Shown here in pieces: positions 1,365-18,021 of a DNA stretch of 64,000 bases. Source of the stretch: a virus (lineage: Duplodnaviria; Caudoviricetes); the IMG/VR virus record IMGVR_UViG_2974508059_000001, positions 1 through 64,000 of that record; one strand, written 5' to 3'. The position numbers were made by a program, and so were the translations under genes. The number at the start of each line of letters is the position of its first letter. The stretch's first letter is position 1. The notes below the pieces were generated by a model that saw only the letters and a program-made list of their open reading frames with translations, did no database searches and had not been told where the DNA came from.

Positions 1365-1955
1365 TTATCTGACAATACGGCCGATGTGGGCTGATATCCC
1401 CATCGCGACGGAACGCGAGATTGCTGTTATCGCGAAGCGTAGACCGCAAGCAGACCCGTAAGCCTTGCGCAGCCGGGACACACAAAGCACTATTGCTCCG
1501 GCGGTAGGTGTCCCGTCCGTTCACAACTTATTCGATGAGCGAAACATGATAAGAGCCTTTGTGCAACATGCTCTTGGCCTTCTTCGGAATGTCATCAGCA
1601 ACCTGCGCATCTGGAGGCTCGATACTTATTGGTTATCAGGCTGTGGGACTGTACGCCATAAACCTTTTTCAGGACGCAAGTCCTCAACTCCGGCGCACGT
1701 CGTGAAGGACGAAGGTCAAGCACCGGCCCATTAAGCCGACTCGCTGACAAAAGCAACCTTCACCCACAATTTGAAAATAACTGATGGGATTGAGTTCCCA
1801 GATGCGAAAGAGTAGCTGTGTGCTACTGAGCACCTCCCCGGGACTGCTAAGCAGCGGGGGAATAGGGCCAACAGGAAAGTAATCGGAGGGGATGGCTCGA
1901 GAGACATTAGCCCGCGGGCACTGTTACTCACGACCTGCATCCCCTCCTGTTTAAA
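1365..1955 (+). ncRNA. Putative structured ncRNA region (several multi-stem modules), unassigned family
   Basis: About 590 nt with no credible ORF; stems CGGGACAC/GTGTCCCG, AAGAGC/GCTCTT, AGGAC-GCAA-GTCCT, AGTAGC/GCTACT, GGAGGGGATG/CATCCCCTCC. Confidence 0.5.
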
Positions 1956-1975
1956 GATGAGTTAGTATATATGTT

Positions 1976-2051
1976 GCAGGCATAGCTCAGTTGGTAGAGC
2001 ATCTGATTTCCAATCAGAGGGTCGTCAGTTCGAACCTGACTGTCTGCTCCA
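1976..2051 (+). tRNA. tRNA-Gly(TCC)
   Basis: Cloverleaf; anticodon arm TCTGA-TTTCCAA-TCAGA; TTCGAA T-loop; encoded CCA. Confidence 0.95.
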
Positions 2052-2150
2052 GAAATGTAATTACAGGTTTACACTGTATTATGTACAAGACATGTGCGCT
2101 TAGCTAAACTGTTGCAAAAATAACAGGTTATCTCAGTACATATGTGCAAT

Positions 2151-2233
2151 GGTTGTGTCACGTTGGCGTGAGTTGGGTTTACGGCAGGCAAACGGACGTA
2201 AGCTCTTCGTGGTTCAATTCCACAGCACAGCCC
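2151..2233 (+). ncRNA. tRNA-like RNA with enlarged anticodon-position arm
   Basis: Acceptor GGTTGTG/CACAGCC, D-like CACG-TTGG-CGTG, 9-bp arm with 13-nt loop, T-arm GTGG-TTCAATT-CCAC; no CCA. Confidence 0.6.
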
Positions 2234-2255
2234 TCTTGTTATGTAAAAGAATTCT

Positions 2256-2340
2256 GGCGGGTTACTCAAGCGGCAACGAGAGCAGACTGTAAATCTGTTG
2301 ACTTCGGTCTTCGGTGGTTCGAGTCCACCACACGCCACCA
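2256..2340 (+). tRNA. tRNA-Tyr(GTA)
   Basis: Anticodon arm GCAGA-CTGTAAA-TCTGT, long variable arm, CCA end. Confidence 0.95.
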
Positions 2341-2345
2341 GTTAT

Positions 2346-2420
2346 ACACCCATCGTCTAGCGGTTAGGACCGCTGCCTTTCGAGCAGTTAACCGGGGTTC
2401 AAATCCCCGTGGGTGTACCA
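2346..2420 (+). tRNA. tRNA-Glu(TTC) copy 1 (loop CTTTCGA)
   Basis: Acceptor ACACCCA/TGGGTGT, T-loop TTCAAAT, CCA end. Confidence 0.9.
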
Positions 2421-2423
2421 AAC

Positions 2424-2499
2424 ATTCCCGTCATCTAGTTGGTAAGGATACGACACTTTCACTGTCGGTACACGAGTTCGAGTCTCGTCGGGAATACCA
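2424..2499 (+). tRNA. tRNA-Glu(TTC) copy 2 (loop CTTTCAC)
   Basis: Acceptor ATTCCCG/CGGGAAT, anticodon arm CGACA/TGTCG, CCA end. Confidence 0.93.
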
Positions 2500-2509
2500 A
2501 ACACAAGAC

Positions 2510-2617
2510 CGTAACCCTGCGGTGTGGTTAGTCGCCACTACTAGCGGTTACGCGATGCCCACTGCTGCGGGGTGTGTGATAGTGAGGTGGTTGACCCCAC
2601 CAAGCGAGCAGCGAGCA
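2510..2617 (+). ncRNA. Putative two-hairpin structured RNA between tRNA-Glu and tRNA-Trp
   Basis: Stems CGTAACC/GGTTACG, GTGG/CCAC, TGCTGC/GCAGCG, GGTGG/CCACC. Confidence 0.4.
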
Positions 2618-2622
2618 ATTTT

Positions 2623-2698
2623 AGGGAAGTAGTTCAATTGGTAGAGCGTCGGTCTCCAAAACCGGTTGTTGGAGGTTCGAGTCCTCTCTTCCCTGCCA
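2623..2698 (+). tRNA. tRNA-Trp(CCA)
   Basis: Anticodon loop CTCCAAA, TTCGAG T-loop, CCA end. Confidence 0.95.
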
Positions 2699-2704
2699 AA
2701 CAGT

Positions 2705-2781
2705 AGGACTGTAGCTCAGACGGTTAGAGTGCCGCCCTGTCACGGCGGAGGTCGCGGGTTCGAAACCCGTCAGTCCTGCCA
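2705..2781 (+). tRNA. tRNA-Asp(GTC)
   Basis: Anticodon arm CCGCC-CTGTCAC-GGCGG, G discriminator, CCA. Confidence 0.95.
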
Positions 2782-2786
2782 TATCT

Positions 2787-2876
2787 GGAGAATTGGATGA
2801 GTGGCTTAAGTCGCTCCCCTGCTAAGGGAGTGTATCCGAAAGGGTACCGTTGGTTCGAATCCAACATTCTCCGCCA
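2787..2876 (+). tRNA. tRNA-Ser(GCT)
   Basis: Anticodon arm CTCCC-CTGCTAA-GGGAG, long variable arm, CCA. Confidence 0.95.
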
Positions 2877-2882
2877 TTACAA

Positions 2883-3038
2883 TGACACCCGCACCTCAAA
2901 ACCCTGGGTATTGCACCCAGAAAAAGAGTGCTGGCAGCCAATAAAGGCATCCGTTAGTAACCGTAGCCTTCGGGCGTAGATGGTGAAGACCGCCAAGTGC
3001 AGCCTTTAGAACTCCGTGGGATTCGGAGGGGTGTCACC
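2883..3038 (+). ncRNA. About 155-nt expanded tRNA-like RNA (acceptor + T-arm geometry with large inserts)
   Basis: GACACCC/GGGTGTC closing stem stacked on CTCCG-TGGGATT-CGGAG, followed by A-CC; internal stems CTGGGT/ACCCAG and TAAAGGC/GCCTTTA. Confidence 0.55.
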
Positions 3039-3049
3039 TACACACGTTA

Positions 3050-3163
3050 AAAGGATCATCCTCCTTGGGCGAAACCAATGGGCGCGCGGGGTGTATAGTC
3101 TGGGGCAAAGCAATCCCAGATGAGTCGTCTGACGTTAACTCGTCAGGGGGCAAGCGGCCACAC
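3050..3163 (+). ncRNA. Putative multibranch structured RNA
   Basis: TTGG-GCGAAA-CCAA, TCTGGG/CCCAGA, CTGACG/CGTCAG, closing TGGGCGC/GCGGCCA. Confidence 0.4.
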
Positions 3164-3169
3164 AATTTC

Positions 3170-3245
3170 TCAACGGTAAGCAAAACTGTGATGCACTGTG
3201 CTCGCGAACAGATTAGGTGGGTTAGAATCCCATAACCGTTGACCC
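3170..3245 (+). ncRNA. Non-canonical/pseudo tRNA with 8-nt anticodon loop (CGC-like)
   Basis: TCAACGGT/ACCGTTGA acceptor, GCA/TGC D stem, CTGT-GCTCGCGA-ACAG, GTGGG-TTAGAAT-CCCAT T-arm. Confidence 0.6.
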
Positions 3246-3251
3246 TTTTAT

Positions 3252-3327
3252 TGGTGATTAGTTCAGTCGGTAGAACAGTGGACTGTTAATCCATATGTCG
3301 CAGGTTCGATTCCTGCATCACCAGCCA
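3252..3327 (+). tRNA. tRNA-Asn(GTT)
   Basis: Anticodon arm GTGGA-CTGTTAA-TCCAT, G discriminator, CCA. Confidence 0.95.
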
Positions 3328-3329
3328 CC

Positions 3330-3750
3330 TTTGCTCTGAGATAACTGTGAATGGCATTCCGGAAAAATTTCATTCAACCTAACACGTGCGGTCGTCTCAG
3401 CGCAAAACCCTTTCGGGATAGTGAACCCTGCAGACCGGTGTGCTTGCATATCGGGTGTCCGCTATCCCGGACCTAATACAGACAGAAGCCGAATAGGTTT
3501 TTCTACTGCACATACGCCCAGAGCCATTACGGGCTTTTGTCTGTACCAAATAGGGCATGGAGAGAGGTTGGTGATAATAGGCCGCCCTGTCTGTGTCCGT
3601 CCCCGTTTGTCGGGTAGGTAGTTCGCTTCCCCCCAAGGATGCTAGCTGTGTCAGCCTGCCCGGCAATCCAAATTAGCGCGCTTGCTAATGAGTGTCTGAA
3701 CCTGACCCGTCGGATACTGCCCAGGTAGTTAGAAAGACTTCGACCACACC
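3330..3750 (+). ncRNA. Tandem series of 55-80-nt closed stem-loop modules, unassigned
   Basis: Closing stems CTGAGA/TCTCAG, CGGGATAG/CTATCCCG, TACAGACAGAAGCC/GGCTTTTGTCTGTA, TTGTCGGGTAGGT/GCCTGCCCGGCAA, with G-U pairs. Confidence 0.5.
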
Positions 3751-3757
3751 AGGGTAC

Positions 3758-3780
3758 CCCCTCTCCGTTTTGGAGAGGGG
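3758..3780 (+). terminator. Strong hairpin ending the RNA island
   Basis: CCCCTCTCC-GTTTT-GGAGAGGGG. Confidence 0.55.
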
Positions 3781-3799
3781 AATACTCTATTTTATTTCG

Positions 3800-3819
3800 G
3801 ATAGATATTATCTCTGTGA
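3800..3819 (+). promoter_or_regulatory. Early (vRNAP-type) promoter motif
   Basis: GATAGATATTAT-N5-TGA; 8 copies in the window. Confidence 0.7.
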
Positions 3820-3866
3820 ACGAAGATGTATTCACTTTAATCGACTGATCACAGAGGCCAGTAAAA

Positions 3867-4922
3867 ATGAAAAATCGTCACTTCAGTAATACCCGCAACG
3901 GTGCACCTAAGATTGATGCACTGAGCAGCTTGCAAGGCTTAGGCTACACAGCACTCCAGGCAAAGAATATTCGCATGTGGCTTCCTCGCCAGTTCGGCAT
4001 GGGTGGTCTGGCATTACCTCGGGCTAACTACGAGTTCTGGAAAGCCTACGAGATTGTCAAGGACATGCAGCAGTACCGCAAGACCAATGCCCTCTCTTTA
4101 CAATTCGCGGGCTACGCAAAGGGCCGTACCGTATTCCAGTTCACGGATAACGAGTTCTTGGAGTACCGCAGTCCGACACTGCACTCAACGGTGTGGTCAT
4201 TGGAGTTTGTGCGTCACTTTGGTAACGGCCTGTGGCGTAGTAGCACGGATGCCTTTGAAGGTGGTCCACGCCAGCTTGAGTACATCGGGGATAACCTGCG
4301 TTTGAAGCGTGGCGAGTTGGCAACCCGTATCGTGGAGATGGAAGCCACACAGACGGTGTACGACCTTAACGCAGACGGCGGCTACTTACCCCGTAACCTC
4401 GAACGCTACACCGAGAACGCGCGTGAGTCCATCGCTACGCTGTTCACCATGGCAGCGGTGTGTCACAGTAACCTGACGCTGAAAAGCGGCTGGAACCTCA
4501 ACCCAGAGCGTCTGTGTTTCACCAAGTACCAGCACTGCGATTCACATCGCTTAGCGTTTGCCATCGGTAAACTCTGTGAGCTTTACCCACAGAAGGAGCA
4601 GTCGATTCGCAGTCACGTGATTCGGATTATGCAGACCCCGAACCACATTCAACTGATGAACGATGACTTTATCCCCGGGGTGTATCATGAAGGTGGAAAC
4701 GTACTCGCGGTGGAACAACCAAATTTCGTTCTCAGTCCCGCCGGGAGTTTTATTCCGAGTGCCTTACAAGGAAGTCTGCCTGCCTTCTTTGTGAACCTAC
4801 CTTTCGCGTACGGGCCAAGCACCACCATCAACAAGCCGATGTTGTTTGTACCGAAAGAGTTGCGGGACGCCCACACCGAAGAAGAGTGGATTCTCGGTGC
4901 TCGCTTGTTCTTTAAACTGTAA
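3867..4922 (+). CDS. Hypothetical early protein (351 aa)
   Basis: GAGG RBS, upstream promoter motif, downstream terminator; no recognised domain. Confidence 0.85.
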   Translation: MKNRHFSNTRNGAPKIDALSSLQGLGYTALQAKNIRMWLPRQFGMGGLALPRANYEFWKAYEIVKDMQQYRKTNALSLQFAGYAKGRTVFQFTDNEFLEYRSPTLHSTVWSLEFVRHFGNGLWRSSTDAFEGGPRQLEYIGDNLRLKRGELATRIVEMEATQTVYDLNADGGYLPRNLERYTENARESIATLFTMAAVCHSNLTLKSGWNLNPERLCFTKYQHCDSHRLAFAIGKLCELYPQKEQSIRSHVIRIMQTPNHIQLMNDDFIPGVYHEGGNVLAVEQPNFVLSPAGSFIPSALQGSLPAFFVNLPFAYGPSTTINKPMLFVPKELRDAHTEEEWILGARLFFKL

Positions 4923-16209: not shown

Positions 16210-18021
16210 ATGGTCAAAGAAGTTACTCCTACTCAAACTGCACAGTCTACTACTACTCAGCAGACTACTCAGACTACCCAGTCAGCTCCACTGAACACCG
16301 GCGCAAGCTCGCTGGACTTCGGTTCTCTGGGTGCAGCAGTTACGATGGACCAGGCCTTCGGCTGGCAGTCCGTCTCTTCCATGGCGAATGATTTCGTCAC
16401 CCGTATTGCGAACCACGCCAAAGAAAATCCAAACGCTCGTCTGGACCGTTTCAAAGTTGGCATGGTCGAAGCTATCTCTCAGTCTGACTTTGCCTCCGGT
16501 GCCTACGTTGCGCTGCAGTACAAAGACCAGTGGCTGTACGGCATCATCCTGTTCGAGAAAGGCGACAGCATGCGTGTTGTGGTTAACAACAACGTTGAGT
16601 CGTACTACACCGTTGCCGGTCTGGTAAACAAAGACGTGCTGCGCAGCGTTGAAGCAGCAGCCGGTGAAAAGCATGGCATCGGTAACATGGCCTTCATCTC
16701 CCTGAACGCTGTGCCGGATCTCGGCAAGCAGATGGACGATGCATGGGCACTGCAGCTGATGGGTCAGATGCTGACCGGTATCGCTGGTCGTATCGCCGGT
16801 GCACTGGGCGACGCTAAGCTGTCTAAATCTGACCGCTTTGCCATCAACGTGGCTGGCGTTCCATCTGGTGTTGTGGTTGATACCAATGCGCACCCACAGC
16901 GTGCTGGTTTCGCACTGTCTGTGAACCATCAGCAGCAGACCCAGAACGAAGCAGGCCCAACCCTGCTGAGTAATGGTGGTGACCGTACGCTGCCTAAGAC
17001 CGTTGCAACTGGTTTCGTTAACCTGCGCTACACCGGTCTGAAGCCACAGGTTCAGGGCGTTACTGACCTGAAACAGCTGCAGGGCGAAGTGGTGGTCTCT
17101 CTGGTCGATTCTCAGATGGCCGGTTCTAAAGCACCGTACGAACGTCACCTGCTGGCACTGGCTGCCTTCGCTGACATCGCACAGATCGGTGGATGGCGCA
17201 GTGAGCTGAAGAACTCTCTGAACAACAGCGACCGTAAGTTCTCTGCGGTAGCATCGTACCTGAGCTGGGGCGGTGAGAAAGTTGATGTTAAGAAGTTGGA
17301 CGGCAACCGCGATGCAATCGACATGGCACTGGATACCTTCTGCCCGGCTCAGGCTGCGCTGGTTGTATCACATCGTGCAGGTAACGGTCTGGGTGGTCTG
17401 TCAACTCTGCTGGCAGAAATCGCAGTGGGCAACGTGAACTCTCTGGCACAGCTGCTGAACATCGCAGACGCCATGTTCCCGGGCGACACCAAGTTCCGTA
17501 ACATCCTGGCTACCAATCTCGGCGGCGTGACTGAAATCAAAACCAGCCACATCGTTGCAGCTGCAGTACCGACTATCGCTGGCCTGTACGTAGGTACCGG
17601 TGAGAAGCGTTCTGCTGCTGATATGGATCTGGTATCTGTGCTGACCCACCTCGGCGACAAACAGTCTGATGCGTACCGCTACATGCATGCGCAGTCATTC
17701 TCTAACCGTCAGATGGATCAGAAAGAACAGCGTATCTACCTGCTGAAACTGGCAGCGTCCATGTACGGCGGTCGTGAGTTCCGTCCTACTGGCGAATCAC
17801 TGGATATGGCTATCCATCCGGTGTTCGCTAAGACTGTACTGGATTGCGTACGCGGTTCTGTATCTGCATGGCAGCTGAACGGTGTCGAAGCGCACGACGC
17901 GATGACCAACAGCCTGTTCACCAACAACGGCAACGAAACCTTCGTTCTGTCTGGCGGCGGCAGCAATGGTTCATTCAACAACTTCGACCTGAGCCTGACT
18001 ACCAACTCCTTCACCCTGTAA
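16210..18021 (+). CDS. chmA: Chimallin, major phage nuclear shell protein (phiKZ gp54-like)
   Basis: 603 aa, disordered T/Q N-terminus, strong codon bias, TAAGGA RBS, two early promoters, immediately upstream of nvRNAP beta' gene. Confidence 0.82.
   Translation: MVKEVTPTQTAQSTTTQQTTQTTQSAPLNTGASSLDFGSLGAAVTMDQAFGWQSVSSMANDFVTRIANHAKENPNARLDRFKVGMVEAISQSDFASGAYVALQYKDQWLYGIILFEKGDSMRVVVNNNVESYYTVAGLVNKDVLRSVEAAAGEKHGIGNMAFISLNAVPDLGKQMDDAWALQLMGQMLTGIAGRIAGALGDAKLSKSDRFAINVAGVPSGVVVDTNAHPQRAGFALSVNHQQQTQNEAGPTLLSNGGDRTLPKTVATGFVNLRYTGLKPQVQGVTDLKQLQGEVVVSLVDSQMAGSKAPYERHLLALAAFADIAQIGGWRSELKNSLNNSDRKFSAVASYLSWGGEKVDVKKLDGNRDAIDMALDTFCPAQAALVVSHRAGNGLGGLSTLLAEIAVGNVNSLAQLLNIADAMFPGDTKFRNILATNLGGVTEIKTSHIVAAAVPTIAGLYVGTGEKRSAADMDLVSVLTHLGDKQSDAYRYMHAQSFSNRQMDQKEQRIYLLKLAASMYGGREFRPTGESLDMAIHPVFAKTVLDCVRGSVSAWQLNGVEAHDAMTNSLFTNNGNETFVLSGGGSNGSFNNFDLSLTTNSFTL

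Follow-up and report, generated by a model that had tools for sequence, protein, structure and literature searches.

What does a jumbo phage encode in the DNA that lies before, between and after its transfer RNA (tRNA) genes? The question is raised by a locus near the start of virus record IMGVR_UViG_2974508059_000001 in the IMG/VR database. Bases 1-64000 of this 244,950-base-pair (bp) record were analysed and are hereafter designated as the window (the whole stretch of 64,000 nucleotides, nt), coordinates above 64000 being those of the whole record. The window phage is an SPN3US-like jumbo phage, and its nearest public genome is that of Erwinia phage pEa_SNUABM_11 (Wellingtonvirus). The whole record contains eight tRNA genes in total, every one of them inside a single RNA-rich island. 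The original prediction had placed this island at 1365-3780 and had read it as tRNAs interleaved with discrete folded modules. Its location stood, with the limits corrected to about 1382 and 3781 and with a 3' side that is bounded by a terminator and an early-promoter motif.

About 1382 to 3781, + strand: the island, rich in RNA and presumably closing a single + strand transcription unit at its 3' end.

Comparison with related phages indicates that nearly all of the non-tRNA DNA of the island is selected, + strand structured RNA and not debris. The island would encode a folded unit of about 570 nt, composed of a leader, a small open reading frame (ORF) and a trailer, followed by the eight decoding tRNAs and about a dozen non-decoding structured RNAs. 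In the reading that we favour, and to which we give about an even chance, the array of tRNAs and non-decoding RNAs would be made as a polycistronic precursor, which host ribonuclease P (RNase P) and trimming of the 3' ends would turn into stable RNAs that mimic tRNA; ahead of it lies a putatively translation-sensitive folded unit. Transcription as one precursor, the cleavages, the stability of the products and every functional role are what we infer from the structures described below.

All eight of the tRNAs originally proposed were recovered on the + strand by both ARAGORN and Rfam, each encoding its own CCA, with Rfam tRNA scores of 47.6-73.5 bits:

1976-2051, + strand: tRNA-Gly(UCC).
2256-2340, + strand: tRNA-Tyr(GUA).
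2346-2420, + strand: tRNA-Glu(UUC).
2424-2499, + strand: tRNA-Glu(UUC).
2623-2698, + strand: tRNA-Trp(CCA).
2705-2781, + strand: tRNA-Asp(GUC).
2787-2876, + strand: tRNA-Ser(GCU).
3252-3327, + strand: tRNA-Asn(GUU).

Canonical tRNA thus amounts to 631 of 2416 bases (26%), close to the quarter that had been estimated, and neighbouring tRNAs are joined by linkers of 3-6 nt. The Rfam scan suggested at the outset matched tRNA as the sole family at E<=10 in the window and, chance sub-threshold matches aside, no other family in the 7 homologous loci scanned (E<=5). Matches to the Y RNA-like family YrlA (RF02553) were all sub-threshold (21-26 bits versus a gathering score of 69) and lay over real tRNAs in relatives.

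Three of the remaining units resemble tRNAs:

2151-2232, + strand: B2, a tRNA look-alike with a 7-8-bp acceptor stem, a small D hairpin, a 9-bp arm with an invariant 13-nt loop, and no CC tail.
2884-3038, + strand: D1, a giant tRNA look-alike of 155 nt, with U(-1), a 7-bp G1:C72 acceptor stem and a T-arm-like stack, then A-C-C.
3170-3245, + strand: D3, a cloverleaf-like tRNA look-alike with a 7-8-bp acceptor stem, an invariant anticodon-type loop GCUCGCGA and the tail A-C-C.

In D1, D3 and B2 alike, a 7-bp acceptor stem stacks on a T stem of 5 bp whose T-type loop has 7 nt (the B2 T stem being GUGG/CCAC). The acceptor stem is GGUUGUG/CACAGCC in B2, with a GUGG/UUCAAUU/CCAC T-arm, and GACACCC/GGGUGUC in D1, with a T-arm-like CUCCG/UGGGAUU/CGGAG stacked on it. 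In D3, which has a U-1, it is CAACGGU/ACCGUUG, the T-arm is GUGGG-UUAGAAU-CCCAU with one bulged A, and the D loop lacks GG. An anticodon arm, taken as a 5-bp stem and a 7-nt loop with U33 and purine 37, was found in none of them. In B2 a stem of 9 bp bears a loop of 13 nt; D1 carries a conserved 74-nt domain at this position, as well as a variable hairpin at that of the D-arm; D3 has a 4-bp stem with the 8-nt loop GCUCGCGA, and a 7-nt loop (CUCGCGA) only if a G31-A39 mismatch is accepted. ARAGORN calls none of the three, D3 reaches 20.1 bits on the tRNA model (RF00005, gathering score 29 bits), and B2 and D1 have no match at E<=10.

The CC of the D1 tail is invariant in 7 homologs and in Serratia phage Moabite, B2 is an insertion relative to pEa_SNUABM_11, and D3 is 98.6% identical in pEa_SNUABM_6; both B2 and D3 are confined to the clade. 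Pattern scans of IMG/VR and a metagenome collection for motifs of D1, D3, B2 and the trailer A3 (see below) returned SPN3US-like jumbo-phage contigs only, plus chance matches in coding DNA. A resemblance of the D1 core to signal recognition particle RNA was considered and dropped, the common GCAGCCAA 8-mer being all that is shared. The D1-type RNA of Moabite is shorter (locus L019, 2040-2135), follows tRNA-Tyr/Ser and is annotated as a 'hypothetical protein' (CPT_Moabite_078). About 80 nt beyond it lies an unannotated tRNA-like unit (L019, 2213-2300), whose T-arm reads GGUUCGAUCCC and whose acceptor stem is ATCGAGA/TCTCGAT. In the Erskinevirus genomes Stratton (L002, 3790-3909) and Asesino (L003, 4378-4498), a public 120-nt 'tRNA-Ile(aat)' was not reproduced by ARAGORN and may represent look-alikes with inserts.

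The rest of the inter-tRNA DNA consists of smaller modules, for which folding energy is given as a z score relative to dinucleotide shuffles:

2055-2145, + strand: B1, a spacer of two hairpins, rich in AT (34% GC); 31 pairs, of which 2 compensatory; z -1.85 (+) versus -0.27 (-).
2510-2601, + strand: C, a three-hairpin module between tRNA-Glu and tRNA-Trp; 30 pairs, 8 compensatory (4 lineages).
3045-3159, + strand: D2, a three-hairpin module; 33 pairs, 4 compensatory (3 lineages); z -2.4 (+) versus -0.8 (-).
3330-3410, + strand: E1, a hairpin with a 5+7-bp closing helix and the tail ACCC; 26 pairs, 2 compensatory; z -3.1.
3412-3473, + strand: E2, a hairpin with an 11-12-bp closing stem and the tail (A)CC; z -3.6; no homolog in any relative locus compared.
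3477-3548, + strand: E3, a hairpin with a 13-14-bp closing stem, U-1 and the tail A-CCA; 22 pairs, 3 compensatory; z -5.3.
3553-3598, + strand: E4a, a hairpin unique to the window phage, with no homolog in the relatives compared.
3607-3666, tail to 3670, + strand: E4b, a hairpin with a conserved UCCA tail; 21 pairs, 4 compensatory (3 lineages).
3691-3755, + strand: E5a and E5b, two adjoining hairpins ahead of the terminator, with no conserved ORF.

The minihelix hairpins E1-E4b are separated by 5-8 nt, akin to the 3-6 nt between tRNAs. The first 32 nt of B1 are 91% conserved in Machinavirus, C is 93% identical to pEa_SNUABM_11, and E3 is conserved out to SPN3US and JN03. Several features of the first description were found again: well over ten closed units were counted where more than ten had been announced, UUCG and GCAA loops are in the sequence, and the absence of repeat families other than the tRNA T-arms agrees with the exclusion of a CRISPR array or tandem repeat. 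Compared with dinucleotide shuffles, a check that had also been called for, B2, D1, D2, D3 and E1-E5 gave + strand z scores of -2.1 to -5.3. Among the controls, five of six coding segments fell between -0.6 and +0.5 (one was at -2.8) and real tRNAs between -0.9 and -4.2. Several inter-tRNA segments are strand-asymmetric in this respect, for example E4 (-3.2 on the + strand versus +0.9 on the - strand).

Upstream of the tRNAs, the island opens with a unit that is single-copy in the genome and spans 1382-1950:

1382-1513, + strand: A1, a structured leader upstream of the small ORF, with hairpins 1382-1406, 1445-1469 and 1476-1513 and conserved loops.
1546-1734, + strand: the small ORF, encoding 62 amino acids, basic (9 K/R versus 3 D/E), with two conserved Trp.
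1611-1646 (ORF codons 22-34) with 1764-1801, + strand: a long-range helix of 28 pairs, from the full-length RNAalifold fold.
1712-1950, + strand: A3, a structured trailer made of a helix 1712-1716/1756-1760, a stop-codon hairpin, a further hairpin at 1812-1826, a variable hairpin that can be swapped, and a long hairpin domain at the 3' end (1882-1950).

Treated as one alignment, the unit has 105 predicted pairs, of which 42 are compensatory. Covariation across homologs, the comparative check proposed originally, was clear for A1, A3 and D1 against both slid-partner and shuffle controls; a fourth alignment, that of the long-range helix, also outscored all of its controls. For A1, RNAalifold on 9 lineages gave 27 pairs with 18 compensatory (2-8 when the partners were slid); 94.1% of cells were paired versus 32-48% slid, and the covariation score of 0.665, against at most 0.16, was reached by none of 500 shuffles. 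The 11 lineages of A3 gave 48 pairs with 19 compensatory (1-4 slid), with 95.1% of cells paired versus 30-46% slid and again 0 of 500 shuffles. In the 7 lineages of D1, 10 of 35 pairs were compensatory (1-5 slid) and 94.2% of cells were paired versus 33-55% slid. The small alignments of B2 (30 pairs, 4 compensatory, 3 lineages), C, D2, D3 (3 compensatory pairs, 4 lineages), E1, E3, E4b and the terminator each contain 2-8 compensatory pairs with their loops unchanged.

These data bear on the view that the non-tRNA units are decaying tRNA genes or neutral debris from the turnover of a fast-evolving tRNA array, which we consider very unlikely. B2 and D3 do have cloverleaf proportions (D3 with 20 bits on the tRNA model), tRNA content differs strongly among relatives, E2 and E4a are unique to the window phage, and JN03 has two tRNA-model matches barely over threshold (37 and 30.6 bits versus 29) where relatives have tRNAs. 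However, substitutions cluster in compensatory pairs while loops stay fixed, as in D3, where 6 of about 8 differences to pEa_SNUABM_29 are paired changes. Modules are also more conserved than the adjacent protein genes, the contiguous 12-14-bp closing stems of the minihelices are not expected from tRNA decay, and the covariation controls were passed by A1, A3 and D1. For A1, A3, C, D1, D2, D3, E1, E3 and E4b, decay is largely refuted by the covariation in these alignments.

The synteny of the locus is kept in Erskinevirus (phiEaH2, Stratton, Asesino), Agricanvirus, Machinavirus and Seoulvirus (SPN3US, JN03), and tRNA content varies widely among these related phages. Identity to Erskinevirus reaches 87.6% over 1610-1882 and 93.9% over 2925-3038, versus 73.5% for the flanking coding sequence (CDS). 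In L012, a metagenomic relative of 248 kb, the flanking genes are 75-85% identical to those of the window; its modules are 93-100% identical in B1, B2, D2, D3, E1, E3 and E5, and 72-80% in A3 and D1. Judging from these identities, the modules behave as cassettes exchanged between phages. E2 and E4a look like recent insertions or replacements; neither has a homolog in the relatives compared, not even in one whose adjoining modules show 98-99% identity. Two unrelated versions of the A3 variable hairpin (1833-1866 in the window) separate Stratton from Asesino and the window phage from L012; this distribution cuts across phage phylogeny, pointing to recombination inside the RNA gene. The 3' domain of A3 in the window (1885-1947) is far from the near-invariant consensus GGUGCUUGGAGGCGCUAAGACC...CUCAGAAGAAGAAGUCC, the outer 10-bp stem alone being kept, and this holds even against a relative (L018) that is about 95% identical just upstream.

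The upstream unit, A3 included, forms a family of about 12 lineages, found by blastn and pattern scans in SPN3US-like jumbo phages only (IMG/VR, GenBank phages and a metagenome collection). It is retained even in relatives that lost most tRNAs, SPN3US and JN03 among them. JN03 and SPN3US have a syntenic, unannotated gap of 1.5 kb (L004, 2218-3773 in JN03) with the small ORF, the A3 RNA and an E3-type hairpin. The two weak tRNA-model matches of JN03 (L004, 3300-3369 and 3372-3443, 37 and 30.6 bits) are not called by ARAGORN and may be degenerate or unusual tRNAs. A possible kinship of A3 with a mini RNase P RNA was set aside: it has a GGAAAGU-like string, but neither P4-type pairing nor an Rfam match.

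One element of the original prediction failed, namely that the island holds no credible CDS. The small ORF at 1546-1734 has 62 codons and an ATG start and is open in 14 of the 14 homologous loci readable there. In nine lineages its frame contains no stop, versus 22 and 20 for the two alternative frames. Indels come in multiples of three, and relatives carry a Shine-Dalgarno (SD)-like AGGTGA upstream. In the N-terminal half, substitutions avoid the second codon position (502/262/513 by position); the C-terminal half has 394/368/398. The first 25 or so codons have no predicted structure, and their DNA diverges freely while the frame stays open. Residues 4-37 weakly match phrog_26199, a small phage protein of unknown function (E=4.6e-6); the product has no Pfam family and no homolog in a 5.8-billion-protein index. 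The UAA stop codon (1732-1734) is part of a 7-nt loop that closes a conserved hairpin, a setting in which a transfer-messenger RNA might come to mind, though ARAGORN found none in the window or the whole genome and Rfam none in the window. Two Trp codons six codons apart occur in all lineages but pEa_SNUABM_29, where the second is lost. Every related locus that spans the region in full has a tRNA-Trp call, and in SPN3US and JN03 ARAGORN calls no other tRNA. The two-Trp ORF and the universal tRNA-Trp may be a coincidence or may reflect a Trp-sensing leader.

Given one ORF that looks real, the region could be thought to hide further small protein genes, with folds that are incidental, as the annotators of relatives assumed when they placed short 'hypothetical proteins' on homologous DNA (Asesino gp20/gp21, Stratton gp19, Moabite gp078). 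This we find extremely improbable. No other conserved ORF was found in the island: outside 1546-1734, six-frame tblastn matches merely mirror DNA identity and extend no further than it in any frame, and the conserved stretches have stops in all frames. Within 3328-3900, no ORF of at least 40 codons is common to the window, pEa_SNUABM_11 and L012, and the Moabite 'CDS' covers a D1-type RNA.

How do the ORF and the fold around it relate? The long-range helix encloses the 3' half of the ORF together with the stop-codon hairpin, and it competes with an invariant local hairpin (1786-1801). In this helix 90.9% of cells are paired versus 32-48% slid, with 4 pairs showing double changes and 11 wobble-compatible single changes; it is only moderately supported because most of the changes are one-sided wobbles. 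The loop of the local hairpin (UUGAGU, UUAAGU or UUAGGU) changes in step with the ORF codons (CUCGAU, CUUGCC, UUUAGU). As a ribosome would have to melt both the long-range helix and the stop-codon hairpin, translation and the modelled fold would be mutually exclusive, which suggests a switch.

The same unit had been put forward, alternatively, as a large ornate RNA. This proposal stood in so far as 1382-1950 is one covarying fold of about 570 nt beside tRNAs; it found no Rfam match to GOLLD or ROOL, and a small ORF lies inside. That the unit is a new RNA of the GOLLD/ROOL kind, working as RNA alone or as an RNA-protein assembly, with the ORF a tolerated linker or regulatory add-on and the small modules a separate matter, strikes us as unlikely. 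Its multi-domain fold with 42 compensatory among 105 predicted pairs, the poorly conserved unstructured stretch inside, its place directly upstream of the tRNA array (tRNA-Gly from 1976) and its retention in relatives without most tRNAs would all suit such an RNA, GOLLD and ROOL being often found near tRNA islands and having internal disordered linkers (PMC12286853). Against it, neither GOLLD, ROOL nor any other large RNA was matched in Rfam (E<=10 in the window, E<=5 in 7 relatives), the predicted pairing density is below that of GOLLD/ROOL, neither pseudoknots nor palindromic kissing loops turned up (no search aimed at them was made), and the supposed linker holds an ATG-started ORF with an SD-like motif, 3n indels only and 0 stops versus 22 and 20.

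The release of RNAs from the array can be considered in the light of RNase P. The bacterial enzyme cleaves acceptor/T-stem hairpins, with the 12-bp stack serving as a ruler; the GGU of the P15 loop in its RNA pairs with N73-C74-C75, and the hairpin pre-4.5S RNA is also a substrate (PMC11143913). Six units of the island have N-C-C right after the closing stem, with the following RNase P-type determinants: D1 and D3 (both U-1, 7+5 bp, ACC), E1 (5+7 bp, ACCC), E2 (11-12 bp, ACC), E3 (U-1, 13 bp, ACCA) and E4b (UCCA). By sequence, these six would resemble the non-tRNA substrates of RNase P, such as pre-4.5S RNA and minihelices; unlike the model substrates, several units of the island lack a CC tail, and the tails present mostly stop at ACC, short of the final A. 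In the mechanism that we favour, the array would be transcribed as one polycistronic precursor, and host RNase P, with the 12-bp helix, U-1 and N73-C74-C75 as its guides, would cut every acceptor-like stem at its 5' base. Host exonucleases would then trim the 3' ends, leaving small stable RNAs that are tRNA-like at the acceptor/T end and non-decoding. Maturation would depend on the host, since no CCA-adding enzyme, RtcB or RNA ligase of family PF09414 (Rnl2-type) was found in the phage genome. The released RNAs would occupy or titrate tRNA-recognising proteins, whether host defence nucleases, tRNA end-modifying toxins or processing factors.

A serious rival is that the modules are cis-acting punctuation and 3'-end protection: they would keep pre-tRNAs folding apart, direct cuts by RNase E, III or P, cap 3' ends against exonucleases, and then be degraded without any function in trans. 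This is possible, if doubtful. The modules do lie exactly between and after the tRNAs, on the same strand and with short linkers; their stems covary; the set differs among related phages, as for replaceable parts; and the strong 10-bp stem 1885-1947, about 30 nt upstream of the 5' end of tRNA-Gly, would shield the upstream RNA after an RNase P cut. Punctuation does not, however, account for loops and internal loops that are invariant while stems change (D3, D1, A3, E1), which plain spacers would not need and which instead suggest specific binding partners, and thus trans-acting RNAs. Multi-domain units of 115-155 nt far exceed what it requires, and five tRNA pairs in the island have no spacer structure at all (3-6-nt linkers). 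Moreover, A3 and E3 persist in SPN3US and JN03, where the region has one full-scoring tRNA (Trp) and two weak-scoring ones.

The 3' boundary of the island is formed by two elements:

3758-3781 (hairpin), tract to 3799, + strand: a terminator-type hairpin CCCCCUCUCC/GGAGAGGGG followed by a U-rich tract, -19.5 kcal/mol.
3800-3820, + strand: an early-promoter-like motif GATAGATATTATCnnnGTGA that opens the next transcription unit (CDS 3867-4922).

The hairpin shows compensatory changes in pEa_SNUABM_11, and the terminator/promoter junction sequence recurs ahead of other early promoters in the genome. At no more than 1 mismatch, (A)GATAGATATTATCnnnGTGA has 21 copies in the genome, all on the + strand and mostly just 3' of a U-rich terminator; those in the window start at 3800, 7145, 16063, 24200, 25588, 29291 and 57227. 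The motif probably represents the consensus of the early promoters of the window phage, those of its virion RNA polymerase. Early promoters of jumbo phages are described as conserved AT-rich motifs of about 10 nt (PMC7598289), a description that GATAGATATTATCnnnGTGA fits. No copy lies inside the island, the nearest upstream one being at 240030, and no sigma-70 promoter in the island scored above chance.

Several observations weigh against a precursor cut into tRNA mimics. The promoter of the unit itself was not found, and a terminator-like hairpin near 241,780 may cut off the one at 240030. B1, B2, C, D2, E4a and E5 have no CC tail. The N-CC stems were delimited post hoc, so that their pattern is descriptive: a genome-wide scan for 8-of-9-bp closing helices gave 417 in the island, where random helices dominate, with an NCC baseline of 5.8%, and exterior helices taken from long-window minimum-free-energy folds were dominated by spurious long-range pairs. 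Several alignments cover 3-5 lineages only, and part of the conservation could reflect recent transfer because cassettes are exchanged. Selection on E2 and E4a is unproven, since they have no homolog and fold energy alone speaks for them. The long-range helix draws largely on wobble-compatible single changes, and the A3 3' domain of the window phage itself deviates from the family consensus. Finally, SPN3US-like phages are, as we take it from the literature, nucleus-forming, with transcription separated from translation; if transcription takes place inside a protein-walled nucleus, access of host RNase P would require RNA export. At 16210-18021 no phage-nucleus shell protein was identified by Pfam or PDB sequence search, and the family matched there, phrog_8316, is unnamed.

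Do the island RNAs belong to a system already described? In phage T4, RNA C and RNA D are matured from tRNA precursors by tRNA-processing enzymes. The role of these two RNAs of the T4 tRNA cluster (species 1 and 2 RNAs) is still unknown (PMC3014915). Like them, the island RNAs would be small non-tRNA RNAs whose genes lie amid those of phage tRNAs and share their strand. In contrast to the two such RNAs of T4, a dozen units are spread here over about 1.7 kb, including the 155-nt look-alike and the 570-nt unit with its ORF; expression is proven for RNA C and D, whereas the island RNAs are known from sequence alone. GOLLD and ROOL are large, covarying, multi-domain RNAs of phages and prophages, typically beside tRNA islands and of unknown function (PMC12286853). 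The 1382-1950 unit shares with them a length above 500 nt, covariation, a multi-domain fold and adjacency to a tRNA island. It differs in matching no covariance model, in carrying a translatable, conserved ORF with its stop codon inside a conserved hairpin, and in being restricted to enterobacterial SPN3US-like jumbo phages. By the sequence tests run, the island RNAs would thus resemble T4 RNA C/D and GOLLD/ROOL in kind and be members of none.

A third comparison is with phage tRNAs as counter-defence. A counter-defence role is proven for T5 tRNA-Lys against PARIS and for phage tRNA-Tyr against retron Eco7 and Septu (PMC11464382, PMC11555353, PMC13096335). The island RNAs likewise come from a phage tRNA array. 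Unlike those tRNAs, which decode and replace cleaved host tRNAs, the island units carry a 13-nt loop, a 74-nt domain or plain hairpins where an anticodon arm would be, cannot decode and would need decoy action. We know of no phage RNA for which decoy action was shown. By analogy, a decoy role against tRNA-directed immunity is attractive. In its most specific form, the island would be an RNA counter-defence battery with a sensor. CCA-less mimics and minihelices released by RNase P would soak up tRNA-recognising effectors (anticodon nucleases, nucleases of the Septu, PARIS and retron type, nucleotidyltransferases of the MenT/AbiE type), and the 570-nt unit would represent a new class of large phage RNA, with a fold switched by translation of the two-Trp ORF, coupling the state of the host translation apparatus to the fate of the array. 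In this form, and for the effectors so named, we regard the proposal as quite unlikely.

The extra stable RNAs found in phage tRNA clusters in the T4 era remain unexplained, and GOLLD and ROOL illustrate how elaborate tRNA-adjacent RNAs can become. Here, the locus adds at least nine RNA families not described before, a compact set validated by comparative genomics. The phage group is a tractable one, with SPN3US in use as a genetic model and the Erwinia phages considered for biocontrol. Should the look-alikes prove to be decoys, non-decoding mimics would join phage tRNAs in defeating tRNA-cleaving immunity. Gating of the 570-nt unit by translation, if it occurs, would make for unusual regulation in a phage said to separate transcription from translation. 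Public annotations need revision, since 'hypothetical proteins' are drawn over island-type RNAs in several genomes.

Two genes precede the island on the same strand. The nearer one (411-1364) encodes a 317-amino-acid solute-binding protein of the NMT1/TAXI type (PF16868), with no permease gene nearby. The other (302-472) encodes a 56-amino-acid TciB-like/DUF3927 membrane peptide (phrog_1470, E=1e-19).

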